This document shows, piece by piece, positions 1 to 12,947 of a stretch of 32,000 bases of DNA. Origin of the DNA: Pseudomonas aeruginosa (GTDB taxonomy: Bacteria > Pseudomonadota > Gammaproteobacteria > Pseudomonadales > Pseudomonadaceae); NCBI RefSeq assembly GCF_001457615.1, contig NZ_LN831024.1, positions 3,600,001 through 3,632,000 on the forward strand. Reading direction: 5' to 3'. The notes under the pieces were generated by a model. It had not been told where the DNA came from, did no database searches, and worked only from the letters and a program-made list of their open reading frames with translations. How positions within the stretch are numbered: position 1 is the first letter of the stretch; each line of letters begins with the position of its first letter. Made by a program: the position numbers and the translations under genes.

Positions 1-539
1 AGATCTTCAAGAGCATCAGCTACGAAGGTGTGCCGGACATCCGCATCATCGTACTGATGGGCTACCCGGTGATGGCCATGCTGCGCCTGCCGACCCGGCA
101 GTCGGGCGGCAAGGCCAACCTGCATCAGGGCGCCATCGGCGTGGGCGTCGACCTGGCCACCGGTGTCACCCTGCGCGGCACCTGGCTGAACAACAAGATC
201 GCCAAGCACCCGGACACCACCAACGCGGTGGACGGCGTGCAACTGCCGAACTGGGACGGCTTCATGAAGCTGGCGGCCGGTTGCTACGAGTTGTCGGGCC
301 TCGGCTACATCGGCGTGGACATGGTTCTCGACCAGGAGAAAGGCCCGCTGATCCTCGAACTCAACGCCCGCCCGGGCCTGAACATCCAGATCGCCAACGA
401 CAGCGGCCTGGTGCACCGCTGCCACGCCGTCGAGGCGCGACTGGAAGAACTCAAGGCGAAAGGCATCGAAGAGTCCGCGGAAGAGCGCGTACGCTTCTCC
501 CAGCAGCTGTTCGGCCACGTCCAGCAGCACCAGGGCTGA
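1..539 (+). CDS. ATP-grasp enzyme, RimK-like alpha-L-glutamate-ligase-related protein (C-terminal part; 5' end lies outside the window)
   Basis: Frame 3 is open from the window edge (IFKSISYEGVPDIRI...), with stop TGA at 537-539. GYIGVDMVLDQEKGPLILELNARPGLNIQ is the typical ATP-grasp C-terminal Mg/ATP-binding E-x-N strand. GC3 is high. A strong terminator follows. Confidence 0.75.
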   Translation, partial: IFKSISYEGVPDIRIIVLMGYPVMAMLRLPTRQSGGKANLHQGAIGVGVDLATGVTLRGTWLNNKIAKHPDTTNAVDGVQLPNWDGFMKLAAGCYELSGLGYIGVDMVLDQEKGPLILELNARPGLNIQIANDSGLVHRCHAVEARLEELKAKGIEESAEERVRFSQQLFGHVQQHQG

Positions 540-595: not shown

Positions 596-1786
596 TCAAC
601 GCACCACGGCCAGCTCGAAGCCGCCCTGCCGGGCGTGCTCATGCACCTGCATACCCGCCTCGTTCACCGCCAGGTCCTGCAGCGGACGCTTGAACGGCTT
701 GTTGTCGAGGGTTTGCAGCGAGCGGTCCTCGTCGGTGGTCAGCAGCAGCACGTAGCGCTCGCCGCGATTGGCTCGCACCGGCACCGTACCCTCGATGAAA
801 GCGTAGCGATACCAGGTTTCCGGGTTCAGCTTGTACACCGCGTCGCTGACCAGCCGGGTCGGCCGCTTGTGCTCGTCGAGGAACAGCAGCGACGGGTAGA
901 CCACCTGGCGGTTGGCGAAACTGCGGATGCGCAGGCCGTAGACACCCTGGGAGCGCGGCAGCCGGATCGCCGCGTAGAAGCTCCTGCCCATGGGAAAGTC
1001 GAAGCTCGGCGAGAAGCGGTTCAACTCCTCGTAGCGCGGTTCGTCGGCATCCAGTTCGGTGAAGTCGCTCTCGGCGATCTGCTCGCAGCAGCGCCGTTGC
1101 AGGTCCTGGTAGAGATCGTCGATGGTCATCTCGGTGCCCTTGAGCAAAGCCTTCAGCGCATCGCTCTGCTGGCCGGCGCCATCCAGCCCGGGCAACGCCG
1201 TCGGACGTTGCTTGAACTCGATCTGCCGGCCCTCGGTGAAGGCGATCTGCGACGAAGGCGCGGCCTCCCGCTTGAAGCGCGCCGCGCGCTCCTCGGGCGG
1301 GATCTGCGAGTTGTGCATGCGGCCCTTCTCGTCCACCCAGGTGTAGTAGGGACTGCCGTTCTCGCTGCGAACGAAACCCTTGCCCTCGAAGGCCTCGGCG
1401 TCGATGTATTCGGCGGAGTGCTCGCCGTTGGGCAGGACGTAGTCGGCGCGCTGGCCGGCGACCTGGGCGCCGGCATAGAAGCTGTTCTGCACGTTGCCGT
1501 TGGCATCGATCCAGGTGTAGTAGCGACGCTTGCTCTCCCCTCCGCTGCTGTTCCCCGGCCACTGCGTGGCGTTGTCCGCCTTGTTCAGCACCCGCGCCTG
1601 GTCGCTCTGGCCGATGCGCTGCCGCGCCTGGCGCTGCTGGCGGTCGAACTGGCCGTCGACGAAGGTGTTGTGCACCCCGCCATTGTCGTCCACCCAGGTC
1701 AGGTAGCGCCCGCCGGAGGCCCAGCCCGGCGAAGATGCCGGCAGCGCCAGGGAGAAGACGCAAAGTACGATGGATGCGCGCATCAT
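596..1786 (-). CDS. Exported protein: three DUF4124-like repeats plus a MalM-like C-terminal domain
   Basis: N-terminal signal peptide MMRASIVLCVFSLALPASS. Three repeats: RYLTWVDDNGGVHNTF, RYYTWIDANGNVQNSF, PYYTWVDEKGRMHNSQ. In the C-terminal part, VYPSLLFLDEHKRP and ERYVLLLTTDEDRSLQT parallel E. coli MalM FAPNVLILDQNMTP and KLYVLVFTTEKDLQQT. SD GGAG lies upstream, 10 nt after the preceding stop. Confidence 0.8.
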   Translation of the reverse strand: MMRASIVLCVFSLALPASSPGWASGGRYLTWVDDNGGVHNTFVDGQFDRQQRQARQRIGQSDQARVLNKADNATQWPGNSSGGESKRRYYTWIDANGNVQNSFYAGAQVAGQRADYVLPNGEHSAEYIDAEAFEGKGFVRSENGSPYYTWVDEKGRMHNSQIPPEERAARFKREAAPSSQIAFTEGRQIEFKQRPTALPGLDGAGQQSDALKALLKGTEMTIDDLYQDLQRRCCEQIAESDFTELDADEPRYEELNRFSPSFDFPMGRSFYAAIRLPRSQGVYGLRIRSFANRQVVYPSLLFLDEHKRPTRLVSDAVYKLNPETWYRYAFIEGTVPVRANRGERYVLLLTTDEDRSLQTLDNKPFKRPLQDLAVNEAGMQVHEHARQGGFELAVVR

Positions 1787-4480: not shown

Positions 4481-5242
4481 CTACTTGGTGCGCAGGTGTA
4501 TGACGTCGCCACCAGTGCCCAGCTCACGGACCTGGTTTTCAGTGATCTTGTTGATCTGCGGAAACTCGCGGAACGCCAGCAGGCTGACGGTGCGGTCGTC
4601 CACCAGGCGCATGTCGCGATCGTTCAGCGCCAGCGCGTTGCGGGGCTCCTGCCCACTCGGGAAGATCACGAACAGGACGTTCTGGTCCCAGATTTCCTCG
4701 AAGCGCGTCCGGGTGAAGCTGATGTTGCCCAAGGCCGGATCGGCGACGAAGACGTGATCGTTGTAGACATCGCGCACCACCACGAAATGCTTGAAGCCGG
4801 CATAGTGGATGGGGACCAGCGCCGGATGCTCGAGAGCGTCCAGGTCGCTGAACTCGGCGCGAAAACCACCGCTCTTGTAGCCCAGCGCAGCGGCGTAGCG
4901 CTTCATGTCGAGCAGCGAGAAACCGCGGCGCTGCACGATCTTATCGGCCTCGCCATAGCGCAGCAGTCCTTCCATGACCTGGCGTTCCTCGAGGTTGCGC
5001 CCGAGGTAGTAGTCCAGCAGCGTGGTAAGCGCCGCCGAGCCGCAGCTGTAGTCATAGGCCTGGCGGATGACGTTGCGGAACTGCAACTGGCTCATCGGCT
5101 CCAGCTGCACCGATTCGCGGTAGGGTCCATTGGGGGTCAGAGGCTGGCTGAGGTTGACCGTGCCCTGCGGTTGCGGCTTGGTATCGACCGTCTGGGTGAA
5201 CCCGAACAGCCCGATCAGACTTCCCAGCAAAATCTCGAACAT
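4481..5242 (-). CDS. Stand-alone peptidase C39-like cysteine protease (no ABC transporter domains), hydrophobic N-terminus
   Basis: IRQAYDYSCGSAALTTLL gives the Gln-x5-Cys oxyanion/nucleophile pattern (Q61, C67). KHFVVVRDVYNDHVFVADPALG gives the His/Asp pair (H152, D168) of C39 bacteriocin-processing peptidases. The N-terminal MFEILLGSLIGLFGF is hydrophobic. Stop TAG at 4481. Confidence 0.8.
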   Translation of the reverse strand: MFEILLGSLIGLFGFTQTVDTKPQPQGTVNLSQPLTPNGPYRESVQLEPMSQLQFRNVIRQAYDYSCGSAALTTLLDYYLGRNLEERQVMEGLLRYGEADKIVQRRGFSLLDMKRYAAALGYKSGGFRAEFSDLDALEHPALVPIHYAGFKHFVVVRDVYNDHVFVADPALGNISFTRTRFEEIWDQNVLFVIFPSGQEPRNALALNDRDMRLVDDRTVSLLAFREFPQINKITENQVRELGTGGDVIHLRTK

Positions 5243-5265
5243 CGCCCCGTCGTACCTCTTTCGGA

Positions 5266-5298
5266 GAAAGACCCCGCCGATGCCTCGGCGAGGTCTTC
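5266..5298 (-). terminator. Intra-cluster stem-loop after the small secreted-protein gene (possible partial terminator/attenuator)
   Basis: GAAAGACCCCGCCGA / TCGGCGAGGTCTTC forms about 13 bp with one mismatch and loop TGCC. On the minus-strand transcript it is followed by UCUUUCUCC. It lies in the 78-nt gap between the stop at 5321 and the next start at 5242. Confidence 0.4.
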
Positions 5299-5320
5299 GC
5301 GTCTCGACTCGGTTCCTGGA

Positions 5321-5758
5321 TCAGTGACCCCAGACCTTGATGGTGGAACCGGCCATGTTCAGCCCGGAGACGGTCAGCGAGCCGATGCTGGCGGCGCTGG
5401 TGTCGCCCACCTTGATGGCGCCAACGGTCACGTCGCCGGTGATGGCCGGCAGGCCGATGGCCAGTTGCTGGGTCGACTTGCCGCCGATATCGGTGGTGAC
5501 GACGTCGATGGTCAGCGGCTTGGTATCGTCGATGGTCAGCGCCGGCAGGCTGATGTTCTCCAGCCGCAGGGAGCCGCCGTTGGTGTCGGTATCGGTGTAG
5601 GTCACGGCCCCGACGGAGCCCTGGAAAGTACCGGAAATGCTGATGCCTGCCTGGCCGGTCACGTCGGACAGCGCGCCATCGTCCATGGCTTTCAGGTCGG
5701 CATGCGCCAGCAAGGGAGCAGCCAGAACAGCAGTTGCAAGGAACAGGTGCTTTTTCAT
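5321..5758 (-). CDS. Small secreted Gly/Thr/Ser/Ile/Asp-rich, Cys-free protein (145 aa) of unknown function
   Basis: I chose the start at ATG 5758 (MKKHLFLATAVLAAPLLAHA, a signal peptide with SD GGAGA 7 nt upstream) rather than the track start at 5812. The mature part has alternating beta-strand-like sequence (ISISGTFQGSVGAVTYTDTD, LTIDVVTTDIGG, VTVGAIKVGD). Confidence 0.8.
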   Translation of the reverse strand: MKKHLFLATAVLAAPLLAHADLKAMDDGALSDVTGQAGISISGTFQGSVGAVTYTDTDTNGGSLRLENISLPALTIDDTKPLTIDVVTTDIGGKSTQQLAIGLPAITGDVTVGAIKVGDTSAASIGSLTVSGLNMAGSTIKVWGH

Positions 5759-5989: not shown

Positions 5990-8713
5990 TCACGCCTCGC
6001 TCAGCAGTCCCAGGCTTTTACCCTTTAGTACGGCTTGCGTTCTGCTCTTCACACCCAGCTTGGCGAACAGGTTGTGCAGGTGCCACTTGATGGTGGCTTC
6101 CGACAGGTGCACCGCCTGCGCGATATCGCGGTTCGACAAGCCCGCCGCCACCAGCCGCAGGATTTCCCGTTCGCGATGGCTAACATCCTGATTTTCATCG
6201 AAACTTTCCGGGTCCACGGAGAGCTTCCGGCACTGCTCGCGGAGCAGGTCGGCCAGCCCCTGCCAGGCCGCGGCACGCTTGGGCTCCGCTTCCCTCCAGC
6301 TTTCCCACATCGGCAACAGCCACAACGCGTCGTCCTGGAACAGCCGGCGGTAGCCGAGATTCCAGGCTTCCTCGAGCGTGGCGAGGAACAGGCCGATGGC
6401 TTTTTCGCTGTTACCTTTCTGCCAATACGCCACAGAAAGTAACAAGGACAAACGCAGCCGCCGATCCCTCTGGTAAGCGGAAGAGTAGCCGGCCAGACAG
6501 CTTTCCAGCTTGCTCTGCGCGCGTTCCGCGTGACGCTCGGACAATGCCAGCCGAGCCTCCGCCAGGACCAGGGCGGTCTGTGCGTCGGCATGCCGCTCGC
6601 CGGAGAGCCCGGCAAGATGCCGCTCCAGTTGCAGGCAGACCCGTTCGGCTTCGTTCGGACGGCGCAGCCACAGCAGGAACTGCACCTTGCAGCTCATGGC
6701 GTGAGCATAGACACGCTCGTAGCCGGGCGAGAGCAGACCGCTCAGCCATTCGTCGAGTTGCGCCAGCCCCTGCTCGGCGGCGCCGGAGAAGAAGCGCGCC
6801 TTGGCCATGACCAACTGGCCGCGACTGAGCAGTTCCACCGGCGTCGCGACATCCCGCCAGACCGTCGCCAGCGGTAGTTCGGCGAGCACGCCGGCATGCC
6901 GGTCCTGCTCGTAGAGCAGGTCGGCATAGGCCAGCGACAAGGGTCCGCCGACCCGGCTGCGCCGGCCGAATACCTGCTCGACCCGGTTGCGCGCCGACTC
7001 GGCGATCGCCCTGCCCCGCTCCAGGTCGCCACTCTCCTTGCAGATCAGGGATTCGATCAGGCTGGTCACCACCTGCAGGTACTCGCTGTCGGCGACTTTC
7101 AGGTCCTCCCGCGCGGAACCGATGGCGCCGGCGGCCTCGGCGTAGTCGCCGAGCAGCGCATGCGCCGAAGCCTGCACGCAGAGCAGGCTGGCGCGGAACA
7201 CCGGCTGGTTGCTCGGGACCATGGACAGCCAGTGACGGGCGACCTTCAGGCAGGCTTCGAGCTTGTCCTGGTAGAGCAACACCAGGGCCTTGAGCACCTG
7301 GGCGGCGGCGAGCAACTCGCCGAGCCCGAAGTGCATGACCTTGCCGCGCCCCTGCAAGAGGCGGTGGCTGACCTCCTCGATCAACGCCTCGGCCTCGGCG
7401 AAGCGTTGCTCGAACGCCAGTTGCCAGGCGTAGAAGATCTGGAACACCGGATGCTCGCGGATCACCTCGGCGGGAATGCCGTTGAGCATGCCGAGGATGC
7501 CGTACACCCGGTTACCGGCGATCAGGCGCGCGCCCTGGCGCTCCAGCAACTCGGCGGCGAACAGGTAGTCGCGGGCGCGAAGGGCGTACTTGATCGCCCG
7601 GTCGGCCAGGTCGCGCCCCTCGCACCAGCGCGCCGCCGCATGCAGCAACGGGGTCGGATCGGCATGCCGGGACAGCCGCCCCTGGAGGAACTCGGCGAAC
7701 AGATGGTGGTAGCGGAACCATTCGCGCTGGTCGTCCAGGGCGATGACGAACAACTGCTCGTTCTGCAGGCGCATGAGCATGTCCAGGCCGTCGCGACGCC
7801 CGGTCAGCGCATTGCACAGTTCCGCATTGAACTCATCGAGCACCGAGGTCTGGTCGAGGAACAGCTGCAGGTCGGCGGGCAGGCTGGCCAGCACGTCTTC
7901 CGCCAGGTAGTCGGCGATGTTCCGTTCGGTCCCGGAGAGCCCGCGGAGGAAACCTTCCCGGTCGGTATTGCGACTGAGGGCCAGGGCCGCCAGGTGCAAC
8001 GCCGTGATCCAGCCTTCGGTGCGCTTGAACAGCAGCTTCAGCTCGCGCTCGCCCAGCTCCAGCCCCTTGAGGTCGAGGAGAAACGCATCGCTCTCCTCGC
8101 GCGAAAGTCGCAGGTCTTCCGCGCTCAGGCAGAAGGTCCAGGGCTTGAGGGTCGGCTCGTCGACCAGGAAGCGCGGGCGGAAGCGGGTCGAGGCCACCAC
8201 CCGCACGTGATCGGGCAGGTTCTCGATCAGGTAGCGAACCCCATGCGGCAAGGCGGCGTGGCGGATGCGGTGGAAATCGTCGAGGAACAGGTACAAGGAG
8301 CCTTCCAGGCGACGCAGGTCGGCGAGGAAGGCATCCAGGATACCCTCCAGCGGCACCGCGACGTCGGTGCCGAGCAGATTGGCGGTATTGCCGCCGAATG
8401 CCGGGACCACTCGCTGGATGCTCGCCAGCAGGTACTGGATCAGACGCTGCGGTTCGCTGTCGGTCTCGTCGCAGGACAACCATGCCACCGCCGCGCCCTG
8501 CTCCAGCAGGCGCAGGCGCAACTGGCAGAGGATGGTGCTCTTGCCGAAGCCGGCCGGCGCGCTGAGCACCATCGCGCGTCGCCCGCGGGCCTCGTACAGG
8601 CGGTCGATCAGCGCCTGGCGGGGCAGCAGCGGCAGCCCTCCGGCGCCTGGCGGGAACAGCTTGGTCTGCAACAGCGGAATGGTGCTGGCGGGAACACCGT
8701 CGCGATGGCCCAT
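5990..8713 (-). CDS. MalT-like large ATP-binding LuxR-family (LAL/STAND) transcriptional regulator, copy 2
   Basis: Start ATG at 8713 (MGHRDGVPASTIPLLQTKLFPP...), 2 nt after the upstream stop. Walker A SAPAGFGKS; Walker B YLFLDDFH; long helical/TPR-like middle region; C-terminal LuxR HTH REREILRLVAAGLSNRDIAQAVHLSEATIKWHLHNLFAKLGV. The track's 1570-aa ORF is a read-through artefact. Confidence 0.85.
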   Translation of the reverse strand: MGHRDGVPASTIPLLQTKLFPPGAGGLPLLPRQALIDRLYEARGRRAMVLSAPAGFGKSTILCQLRLRLLEQGAAVAWLSCDETDSEPQRLIQYLLASIQRVVPAFGGNTANLLGTDVAVPLEGILDAFLADLRRLEGSLYLFLDDFHRIRHAALPHGVRYLIENLPDHVRVVASTRFRPRFLVDEPTLKPWTFCLSAEDLRLSREESDAFLLDLKGLELGERELKLLFKRTEGWITALHLAALALSRNTDREGFLRGLSGTERNIADYLAEDVLASLPADLQLFLDQTSVLDEFNAELCNALTGRRDGLDMLMRLQNEQLFVIALDDQREWFRYHHLFAEFLQGRLSRHADPTPLLHAAARWCEGRDLADRAIKYALRARDYLFAAELLERQGARLIAGNRVYGILGMLNGIPAEVIREHPVFQIFYAWQLAFEQRFAEAEALIEEVSHRLLQGRGKVMHFGLGELLAAAQVLKALVLLYQDKLEACLKVARHWLSMVPSNQPVFRASLLCVQASAHALLGDYAEAAGAIGSAREDLKVADSEYLQVVTSLIESLICKESGDLERGRAIAESARNRVEQVFGRRSRVGGPLSLAYADLLYEQDRHAGVLAELPLATVWRDVATPVELLSRGQLVMAKARFFSGAAEQGLAQLDEWLSGLLSPGYERVYAHAMSCKVQFLLWLRRPNEAERVCLQLERHLAGLSGERHADAQTALVLAEARLALSERHAERAQSKLESCLAGYSSAYQRDRRLRLSLLLSVAYWQKGNSEKAIGLFLATLEEAWNLGYRRLFQDDALWLLPMWESWREAEPKRAAAWQGLADLLREQCRKLSVDPESFDENQDVSHREREILRLVAAGLSNRDIAQAVHLSEATIKWHLHNLFAKLGVKSRTQAVLKGKSLGLLSEA

Positions 8714-11585: not shown

Positions 11586-12947
11586 ATGCCCAGTTGTCAT
11601 GTTCACCCCCTGCCCTACCATAGCGACCCAAGCTGTCTCTTTGCCATCATCCATGAGGCGCCCGGTGCGGTGATGCTCGATTCGGGTCGCCCCATCGCTA
11701 CCCGTGGACGCTATGACCTTATGAGCGCCTGGCCATTGGCAGAACTGGCGCCGCTGCCCGACGAATCGGCCAACCGCTTCTTCGCCCGCCTACGCGAAGC
11801 GGCCGGAAGCCTGGGCCCCGCGCAGCTGCCAGCGCCGTACGAACTGCCCTTCGCCGGCGGTCTGCTGGGCTATTTATCCTACGACCTGGGTCGGCGCATC
11901 GAGCGCATCGGCGAACACGCCCGCGATGACCTGGGCCTGCCGCTGGCCTCCGTCGGCCTGTATGCCTGGGCGCTGATCAGCGACCACCAGGCCGGCACCA
12001 GCCAACTGGTATTCCACCCGCGATTGGACGAGCGCGAACGCCAGCGCCTGATCGCCCTGTTCAGCGAGGAAGCGCAAGGCGCGGCCGGCAACTTCAAGCT
12101 TCTGGGAAAATTCCGACGGAGCATCAGCGCATCCGACTATCGGCAGGCGATCCGCCGCATCCAGGACTACATCCAGGCAGGCGACTGCTACCAGGTGAAC
12201 TATAGCCAGCGCTTCCAGGCCGCTTGCAGCGGCTCGCCGTGGCCGGCCTATCGCGCCCTGCGCGAGGCCTGCCCGACGCCGTTCTCCGGCTACCTGCGAC
12301 TGGCCGACGGCGCGATCCTCAGCCTGTCGCCGGAGCGCTTCCTCAAGCTCGGCAAGGGCAAGGTGGAAACCCGGCCGATCAAGGGCACCCGCCCGCGCGG
12401 CAAGACGCCCGAGGAGGACATGGCGCTGGCGGCGTCGCTGCTGGCCAGCCCCAAGGACCGCGCGGAAAACCTGATGATCGTCGACCTGCTGCGCAACGAC
12501 ATCGGACGCAGTTGCCAACCTGGCAGCGTACGGGTACCGGAGCTGTTTGCCCTGGAAAGCTATCCCAACGTGCATCACCTGGTGAGCAGCGTCACCGGCG
12601 AACTGGCGCCGGGCAAGGACGCCCTCGACCTGCTGGAAGGCAGCTTCCCCGGCGGCTCGATCACCGGCGCGCCGAAGATTCGCGCCATGCAGATCATCGA
12701 CGAGCTGGAACCGAGCCGACGCGGCATCTACTGCGGCAGCCTGTTCTACCTCGACGTGCGCGGCGAGATGGACAGCTCGATCGCCATCCGCACCCTGCTG
12801 GTCAGGGACGGCCAGGTCAGTTGCTGGGGCGGCGGCGGCATCGTCGCCGACTCGCACTGGGAGGACGAGTACCAGGAAACCCTGGACAAGGTCCGGGTGC
12901 TGCTGGAAACCCTGGAAGGAATGGCCGGGACAGCGTCCCCGGAATAG
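11586..12947 (+). CDS. pabB: Aminodeoxychorismate synthase component I
   Basis: Chorismate-binding enzyme motifs SPERFLK, ETRPIKGTRPRG, DRAENLMIVDLLRNDIGR, FPGGSITGAPKIRAMQIIDELE, RGIYCGS. There is no TrpE-type N-terminal feedback motif. The position next to thrH/cysH is as I recall for PAO1. Confidence 0.85.
   Translation: MPSCHVHPLPYHSDPSCLFAIIHEAPGAVMLDSGRPIATRGRYDLMSAWPLAELAPLPDESANRFFARLREAAGSLGPAQLPAPYELPFAGGLLGYLSYDLGRRIERIGEHARDDLGLPLASVGLYAWALISDHQAGTSQLVFHPRLDERERQRLIALFSEEAQGAAGNFKLLGKFRRSISASDYRQAIRRIQDYIQAGDCYQVNYSQRFQAACSGSPWPAYRALREACPTPFSGYLRLADGAILSLSPERFLKLGKGKVETRPIKGTRPRGKTPEEDMALAASLLASPKDRAENLMIVDLLRNDIGRSCQPGSVRVPELFALESYPNVHHLVSSVTGELAPGKDALDLLEGSFPGGSITGAPKIRAMQIIDELEPSRRGIYCGSLFYLDVRGEMDSSIAIRTLLVRDGQVSCWGGGGIVADSHWEDEYQETLDKVRVLLETLEGMAGTASPE

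Follow-up and report, generated by a model that had tools for sequence, protein, structure and literature searches.

What removes the second leader of a Sec-exported protein, and where in the cell? The question is raised by a minus-strand operon in Pseudomonas aeruginosa (contig NZ_LN831024.1, positions 3,600,001 to 3,632,000; this whole 32-kb stretch is hereafter the window), in which the gene for a 145-residue protein, carrying a leader-like block behind its signal peptide, is followed by the gene for a C39-like cysteine peptidase. We consider it probable that the operon is the P. aeruginosa form of a Fil-type fimbrial system, a relative of Fap, in which the leader of the pilin is cut by the adjacent C39 peptidase. 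Compared with the Acinetobacter Fil system, the locus is a variant with a short subunit. Going by protein family, leader register, and synteny, the neighboring C39 peptidase most likely removes the leader after a Gly-Gln pair.

Leader and family of the pilin precursor

The small protein reads MKKHLFLATAVLAAPLLAHA↓DLKAMDDGALSDVTGQAGISISG... (↓ marks a cut), and the translation of its open reading frame (ORF; 5758-5321, minus strand) runs MKKHLFLATAVLAAPLLAHA↓DLKAMDDGALSDVTGQAG..., with nucleotides 5645-5698 encoding D21-G38. The original prediction had described a Sec signal followed by a leader-like block, and its coordinates, frames, and residue range are right. The features of a signal peptide are present: K2 and K3 make the n-region basic, the hydrophobic core spans 13 residues, and A-H-A occupies -3/-1. 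The Sec-type signal is predicted to end at AHA↓D. A Pfam scan returned only DUF6160 (PF19657; 81.1 bits versus a cut-off of 27) and no type IV pilin methylation motif. Across 1.8 billion cluster representatives, a DUF6160 profile search recovered 755 members at E ≤1e-3; members range in length from 140 to 2064 residues.

A motif-anchored family logo was drawn from 139 of the best 148 DUF6160 members, all representatives of 50%-identity clusters, and follows the pattern A-x-A↓[EDA]-[LM]-x-x-[MLIV]-D-D-x-x-[LM]-x-x-[VMTI]-[TS]-G-Q-[ADS]-G-[VI]-[TS]-I. The block singled out by the original prediction proved to be the most conserved part of the family, the rest of the protein having a mean column identity of 13%. 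In the near-invariant G-Q-x-G box, both Gly residues occur in 139/139 members and Gln in 137/139 (Arg in 2/139), while upstream of the box the second Asp is found in 129/139 and the A-x-A ahead of the leader is conserved at 109/139 and 101/139. Counted from a cut after Gln, hydrophobic residues fall at -4 ([VMTI]), -7 ([LM], 139/139), -12 ([MLIV], 138/139), and -15 ([LM]), with Gly at -2 and often Glu at -8; the corresponding hydrophobic residues of the window leader are V33, L30, M25, and L22. A six-frame translation of the window contains the motif a single time, and the motif is near-invariant among 139 divergent representatives; hence, it is beyond chance.

Double-glycine leaders share the consensus Leu(-12)-X3-Glu(-8)-Leu(-7) and are cut at Gly-Gly, Gly-Ala, or Gly-Ser sites owing to the narrow C39 pocket (PMC6363468). 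The hydrophobic residues at -4, -7, and -12 and the Gly at -2 of this register are all found in the DUF6160 leader, with Gln taking the place of Gly, Ala, or Ser at -1. Searched against NCBIfam at E values up to 10, the leader had FilA as its sole match and matched no curated double-glycine leader family. Its likeness to double-glycine leaders is therefore one of register and not of demonstrable homology. In an AlphaFold2 (AF2) model of the 145-residue protein, a beta-rich domain begins at residue ~41 (predicted local distance difference test, pLDDT, 85-93) and the leader is helical to residue 34, with low confidence over residues 1-40.

Foldseek with the AF2 model gave one significant match in the PDB, 9XFV ("pilus-like-alpha"; E 1.2e-4, template modeling score 0.51), a helical filament with a rise of 11.7 Å obtained by cryo-electron microscopy, native from karst-cave water (PNAS 2026, PMC12956863). 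9XFV is itself a DUF6160 member, with a profile E value of 5.4e-14 and an E value of 2.8e-46 to family member P0175. The 173-residue 9XFV chain starts DGVSIAGD... and aligns to residue 38 of P0175, directly after ...MTAIEDDALSTVSGQ, ahead of which the P0175 signal peptide ends ASA. Family and fold are thus common to 9XFV and the window pilin, and the chain corresponds to the predicted mature region, although the two share 19% identity and 173 residues compare with ~109 mature residues. The 9XFV model was auto-built into density (EMD-66838) and later matched to UniProt entry A0A257CJ09; its authors used it as a handedness control only and did not discuss processing or biogenesis (PMC12956863). 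The C39 register and, independently, the point at which order begins in a native pilus therefore both indicate the Q36↓A37 bond. The cut most likely falls at G35-Q36↓A37, with Gln at P1, and loss of the leader in the assembled fiber is supported by the 9XFV structure. The idea of a Sec-exported precursor with a double-glycine-type leader accordingly stands on the register, the 9XFV start, and synteny; the original prediction erred in the position of the cut, which is most likely at neither a Gly-Gly nor an Ala-Gly site.

At the other end of the family's proteins, a C-terminal ...[VI][WY][GA]H-COOH is almost invariant across DUF6160 (...KVWGH in the window, 5321-5335, minus strand). Its terminal His is also the last residue of the 9XFV chain, and the motif could be a secretion or polymerization signal. 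P0122, a DUF6160 protein of 2064 residues with the leader ...EDDEMSKVSGRDG (Arg for Gln), 11 domain repeats, and the ending ...RVWGHE, is a giant version of the subunit.

The C39 peptidase and its probable role in leader removal

The 253-residue product of the next gene matches Pfam Peptidase_C39 (PF03412; 73.9 bits versus a cut-off of 22) over residues 57-192 and no other domain, and it has a C-terminal extension of ~55 residues. The claim of a C39-like peptidase without the domains of ATP-binding cassette (ABC) transporters is thereby upheld, as is that of an intact catalytic set: in HMMER alignments to LahT150 (6mpz) and PCAT1 (4ry2), Q61, C67, H152, and D168 lie on catalytic positions, and all four are invariant in 25 homologs. 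For the peptidase, AF2 gave a model of low confidence (pLDDT 61.7), on which nothing here rests. Also as described earlier, the protein has a hydrophobic N-terminus of its own (MFEILLGSLIGLFGFTQTV, residues 1-19; Kyte-Doolittle mean of 1.93 over 15 residues). The N-termini of homologs are conserved as M-[FIL]-E-I-x-L-G-S plus ~10 hydrophobic residues, with no basic n-region. Judged by its residues, the segment may be a signal peptide or an anchor of either the signal-anchor or the N-out kind; we infer a periplasmic location for the enzyme.

Among curated NCBIfam models, FilB ranked first for the peptidase (E 1.3e-87), followed by FapD (E 7.4e-35) and transporter-borne C39 models (~1e-11). The FilB match (NF050078) scores 293.7 bits over model positions 1-240/277, below the cut-off of 475, and the FapD equivalog (NF058616) scores 120.2 bits versus 330, the neighboring genes being DUF6160, FilC-like, and FadL-like rather than fapA-C/E. 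Models of PCAT/AMS exporters were matched only over their first ~130 positions, at 24-42 bits versus cut-offs of 500-853. FapD has a Sec signal, is functional with the OmpA signal sequence, and has been shown experimentally to be a periplasmic C39 peptidase (PMC5557850); hence, a transporter-less, extracytoplasmic C39 enzyme is precedented. At NCBI, moreover, a model exists already under the name "putative pilus system C39 family peptidase FilB". The arrangement is therefore less unusual for C39 enzymes than had been supposed.

Using a degenerate DNA pattern for the leader, we collected 120 loci (8-kb blocks) from one-genome-per-species contigs. ORFs were called at these loci and searched with the window proteins (phmmer, jackhmmer), with a stop-to-stop ORF gap of ≤700 nucleotides. 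Among determinable loci, the C39 gene was directly downstream of the leader gene in 18/18 from Pseudomonas, 20/20 from Acinetobacter, and 15/19 from other taxa outside Marinobacter, the last 15 including Alkanindiges, Alcanivorax, Oleispira, Thalassolituus, Bacterioplanoides, Ectopseudomonas, and Atopomonas. The other four loci came one each from Hahellaceae, Bermanella, Aquabacterium, and an unclassified Pseudomonadota metagenome-assembled genome. Downstream of the C39 gene, FilC-like and then FilD-like genes usually follow, and in some loci (L001, L040, L052, L092) two to four tandem subunit genes stand ahead of the peptidase gene.

Marinobacter is the exception, with the C39 gene directly downstream in 0/21 determinable loci and no C39, FilC, or FilD gene within at least 2 kb downstream in any of the 21. 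A search for a FilB homolog in Marinobacter, made with a divergent FilB as query, was uninformative, the matches listed all having ≥63% identity, and the ORFs beside the orphan DUF6160 gene of M. nauticus had no family matches. These orphans call for a peptidase acting in trans or for another explanation. Many DUF6160 genes of ~250-330 codons with a perfect leader were seen in this genus (38 loci, e.g., L007, L008, L016, L020, and L119), and one Hahellaceae locus has three tandem copies of the orphan type; L072, L086, and L102 are grouped with these loci.

Several observations weigh against cleavage of the leader by the adjacent peptidase. Canonical narrow C39 pockets take Gly, Ala, or Ser at P1 (PMC6363468), so that Gln at this position would need a pocket unlike the narrow one of LahT150. 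The lack of a match to any curated double-glycine leader family counts on the same side, as does a helical hydrophobic moment of 0.60 for the leader, not above the shuffle mean of 0.66, by which amphipathicity alone is no evidence. A leader kept on the subunit but disordered would leave no trace in the auto-built 9XFV density, and the first modeled residue could be one or two off. As for topology, the 15 residues after the hydrophobic segment of the peptidase hold on average 1.7 K/R versus 2.5 D/E; with no basic n-region and balanced flank charges, periplasmic orientation is not predictable. Finally, leader genes without a nearby C39 gene make up 21/21 determinable loci in Marinobacter, in addition to the four loci of other taxa.

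The Gln at P1, atypical for C39, and the Marinobacter leaders without a neighboring C39 gene would also fit removal of the leader by another periplasmic or surface protease, leaving the C39 enzyme to process a machinery component, for instance the FapF-like FilC. FapD, whose own target is unknown, had been proposed to cleave FapF or FapE (PMC5557850). We nevertheless regard this division of labor as unlikely, since the leader copies the C39 recognition register exactly and the C39 gene is the immediate downstream neighbor at 18/18 Pseudomonas, 20/20 Acinetobacter, and 15/19 other loci outside Marinobacter. It is rather improbable that the block is instead retained as a flexible targeting or chaperoning segment, e.g., for docking at the outer-membrane channel, that is disordered in the filament, with the C39 protein mainly a binder. 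An auto-built 9XFV would not show a disordered tail, AF2 confidence is low over residues 1-40, and binding-only C39-like domains are known, as in some type 1 systems (PMC5557850, PMC6363468). However, the Q/C/H/D set is invariant, the active-site Cys of FapD is required for FapC secretion (PMC5557850), and the 9XFV start coincides to the residue with the site predicted by the register.

Two further possibilities concern the compartment and the nature of the small protein. The C39 domain might be held in the cytoplasm by an N-out anchor and act on the precursor ahead of Sec export or in place of it, a topology in keeping with canonical cytoplasmic C39 domains (PMC6363468), with an N-terminus devoid of positive charges, and with some K/R after the hydrophobic segment, especially in Acinetobacter. 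A cut after Q36 in that compartment would, however, remove the signal peptide, and the operon lacks an ABC transporter; FapD, the closest characterized relative, works in the periplasm, and the post-anchor segment is net acidic in divergent homologs. We hold this to be very improbable. That the small protein is a secreted bacteriocin-like or signaling peptide behind a double-glycine leader has only the likeness of its motif in its favor. Against it stand the Sec signal, the ~109 residues folded into a beta-rich domain, and membership of a pilus-forming family; no bacteriocin or leader family was matched, and the locus has no ABC exporter or immunity gene. The bacteriocin-like reading is scarcely credible and gives way to that of a pilus subunit.

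For cleavage by the adjacent C39 peptidase, the reading we prefer, the following route is proposed. The 145-residue pilin precursor would be exported through Sec and lose its signal peptide at AHA↓D, giving a periplasmic form that keeps a 16-residue helical leader, DLKAMDDGALSDVTGQ, as a mimic of a double-glycine leader. The C39 peptidase, presumed to be the enzyme and to be membrane-tethered or periplasmic by way of its hydrophobic N-terminus, would bind this helix and cut after Gly-Gln to yield the mature N-terminus AGISIS.... By analogy with Fap, the mature subunit would then cross the outer membrane, probably via the FapF-like FilC barrel, and polymerize into a pilus, with the FadL-like FilD and the MalM-like protein as likely accessory or anchoring factors. 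A stem-loop after the pilin gene would keep subunit expression above that of the machinery, and two upstream, ligand-responsive MalT-like regulators probably switch the operon on. ABC-borne C39 domains hold the leader while cargo is fed into the transporter (PMC6363468), and we speculate by analogy that the peptidase may pass the pilin on to the channel in the outer membrane. Quite possibly, though we put this forward tentatively, DUF6160/Fil pili have a distinct biogenesis route made up of a Sec-exported pilin, a second leader of the double-glycine type, a dedicated extracytoplasmic C39 enzyme whose specificity for Gly-Gln is new, and coupling of cleavage to export through a FapF-like channel.

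Operon layout, neighbors, and carriers

The operon is one minus-strand unit with gaps of 10-78 nucleotides, and its coordinates (Table 1) agree with public P. aeruginosa gene calls. The 145-residue protein is 99-100% identical to P. aeruginosa entries, its exact sequence occurs in >44,000 blocks of the assembly collection, and public P. aeruginosa assemblies have the same 145- and 253-residue products called.

Table 1. Coordinates of the pilin operon, its features, and adjacent genes in the window
Feature	Coordinates	Strand	Basis
DUF6160/FilA-like pilin precursor, 145 residues	5321..5758	-	PF19657 81.1 bits, AF2, 9XFV match
Predicted Sec-type signal peptide, residues 1-20 (MKKHLFLATAVLAAPLLAHA)	5699..5758	-	Sequence features
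Leader peptide, residues 21-36 (DLKAMDDGALSDVTGQ)	5651..5698	-	Family logo; absent from 9XFV chain
G35-Q36-A37-G38 box, proposed scissile bond Q36↓A37	5645..5656	-	Logo and 9XFV start
Predicted mature pilin, residues 37-145, ends ...VWGH	5324..5650	-	Logo, AF2, 9XFV alignment
14-bp stem-loop between pilin and peptidase genes, attenuator/terminator-like	5267..5298	-	RNA fold
Stand-alone C39 cysteine peptidase, FilB-like/FapD-like, 253 residues	4481..5242	-	Pfam, NCBIfam, structure-sequence alignments
FilC-like/FapF-like outer-membrane protein, 341 residues	3415..4440	-	NCBIfam, sub-cut-off
FilD-like FadL/TodX-family outer-membrane protein, 532 residues	1797..3395	-	Pfam Toluene_X E 1.8e-131
Exported MalM + DUF4124 protein, 396 residues, last operon gene	596..1786	-	Pfam
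MalT/LuxR-type STAND regulator, 907 residues, directly upstream	5990..8713	-	Pfam AAA_16, TPR_MalT, GerE
Second MalT/LuxR-type regulator, 901 residues	8716..11421	-	Pfam and public gene calls
pabB (chorismate-binding enzyme)	11586..12947	+	Beyond both regulators, opposite strand

The remaining operon products all bear export signals. No Pfam match was found for the 341-residue FilC-like protein, and the last gene product matches MalM (E 2.9e-33) and DUF4124 (E 2.6e-10) in Pfam; a gene of this kind comes after FilD in loci of the Pseudomonas type, and Acinetobacter loci have none in that place. Regulators similar to the two MalT-like STAND/LuxR proteins were matched in 31/120 related loci, and their tandem position directly upstream suggests ligand-dependent control of the pilus operon. 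The operon is presumably PA1761-PA1765 of the PAO1 map, an assignment that only the pabB neighborhood backs. A pabB-like gene also lies divergently beside the orphan DUF6160 gene of M. nauticus (L105, 5490-7622, plus strand), and pabB at both loci may be a remnant of shared locus ancestry. Past the MalM gene, on the opposite strand, are genes for ATP-grasp (RimK-like), 7TM-transglutaminase, and RimB-like proteins (window 30-539, plus strand; L121 13220-16278), which are, as far as can be told, unrelated to the pilus.

The 83-nucleotide spacer between the pilin and peptidase genes folds at -34.6 kcal/mol (z -1.97). A consensus terminator scan did not call the hairpin in this spacer; RNA folding found it. 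An equivalent stem-loop occupies the same position in ~50 related loci, as a canonical GC stem with a U-tract terminator in Acinetobacter, Oleispira, and Alcanivorax and as an 11-16 bp GC stem in Pseudomonas. Its position is thus conserved and its sequence is not, as expected for attenuation that favors expression of the subunit over that of the machinery.

The leader family is carried mostly by bacteria that degrade hydrocarbons or lipids, namely Alkanindiges, Alcanivorax, Oleispira, Thalassolituus, Bermanella, Marinobacter, Acinetobacter, and the P. aeruginosa, citronellolis, nitroreducens, and mendocina groups. Together with the FadL-like neighbor, this concentration in oil and lipid degraders hints at a role with hydrophobic substrates. 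The alkane-uptake pair AupA/AupB of Marinobacter may have relatives in the FadL-like FilD and the MalM-like protein. In a rubB mutant, a 13-18-fold change is listed (PMC12431658) for PA1761 and PA1762, probably two genes of the window operon.

Comparison with known systems

FilA is the subunit of the long, curved "Fil fimbriae" of Acinetobacter sp. Tol 5, where it was identified by Edman degradation, and these fimbriae are abundant on cells grown on triacylglycerol. The nearest NCBIfam models for the window proteins are FilA (1e-13), FilB (1.3e-87), FilC (2.1e-85), and FilD (2e-154), all with bit scores below their cut-offs (51.4/220, 294/475, 287/630, and 515/970, respectively). The Fil gene order of subunit, C39 peptidase, FapF-like barrel, and FadL-like barrel recurs at 5758-1797, as it does in Acinetobacter and other loci. 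In FilA (NF050077), only the leader and the C-terminal part match the window pilin, with FilA model positions 21-41 matching the window leader at E 9.4e-5 over 23 residues. The window locus differs from Acinetobacter filA-F in a subunit of half the length (145 versus ~280 residues), in having a MalM/DUF4124 protein in place of FilE/FilF, and in the two MalT-like regulators upstream.

Next nearest are the Fap models, FapD at 7.4e-35 and FapF at 1.1e-18 (67 versus 700 bits, the match being the FilC-like protein). Fap shares with the window system a FapF-type barrel, substrates that depend on Sec, and a stand-alone C39 peptidase, which in the window system, too, would act outside the cytoplasm; the active-site Cys of FapD is needed for secretion of FapC (PMC5557850). 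Unlike an Asn/Gln-rich amyloid repeat protein, the window protein is a folded pilin with a clear C39 recognition sequence, Fap proteins having been reported to lack a canonical one (PMC5557850); the window locus also differs from Fap by its FadL-like protein.

Our literature searches (DUF6160; Fil/C39/FapF; periplasmic C39) found no explicit substrate signal described for the FapD/FilB clade, and the pairing of leader and protease with a Gly-Gln cut appears to be undescribed. An explicit substrate signal is present here, retained across hundreds of divergent proteins, and it offers a concrete, testable target for this C39 class; cleavage by the adjacent peptidase predicts an altered S1 pocket that accepts Gln. 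If DUF6160/Fil pili do follow the distinct route put forward above, the FapD/FilB clade of C39 enzymes would gain its first defined substrate and recognition code, and an uncharacterized core P. aeruginosa operon beside pabB would be assigned a function. DUF6160, the orphan filament 9XFV, the little-studied Fil fimbriae of Acinetobacter, and this operon, previously separate, are now connected.

With PCAT/AMS proteins (ComA, LahT, PCAT1, and CvaB), the window system has in common the peptidase family, the catalytic residues, and a leader predicted to be helical, with Gly at -2 and its hydrophobic residues at -4, -7, and -12 (as well as -15). It differs from them in that the leader follows a Sec signal, whereas double-glycine leaders start their protein, in having Gln at P1 where they have Gly, Ala, or Ser, in a peptidase that is not fused to a transporter, and in a cargo that is a pilin. 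In concept, the proposed route resembles that of type IV pili, through prepilin peptidase, and of the type V pili of Bacteroidia, where an exported subunit is trimmed at its N-terminus before it polymerizes; these differ from the window system in protease family, signal, and export route.

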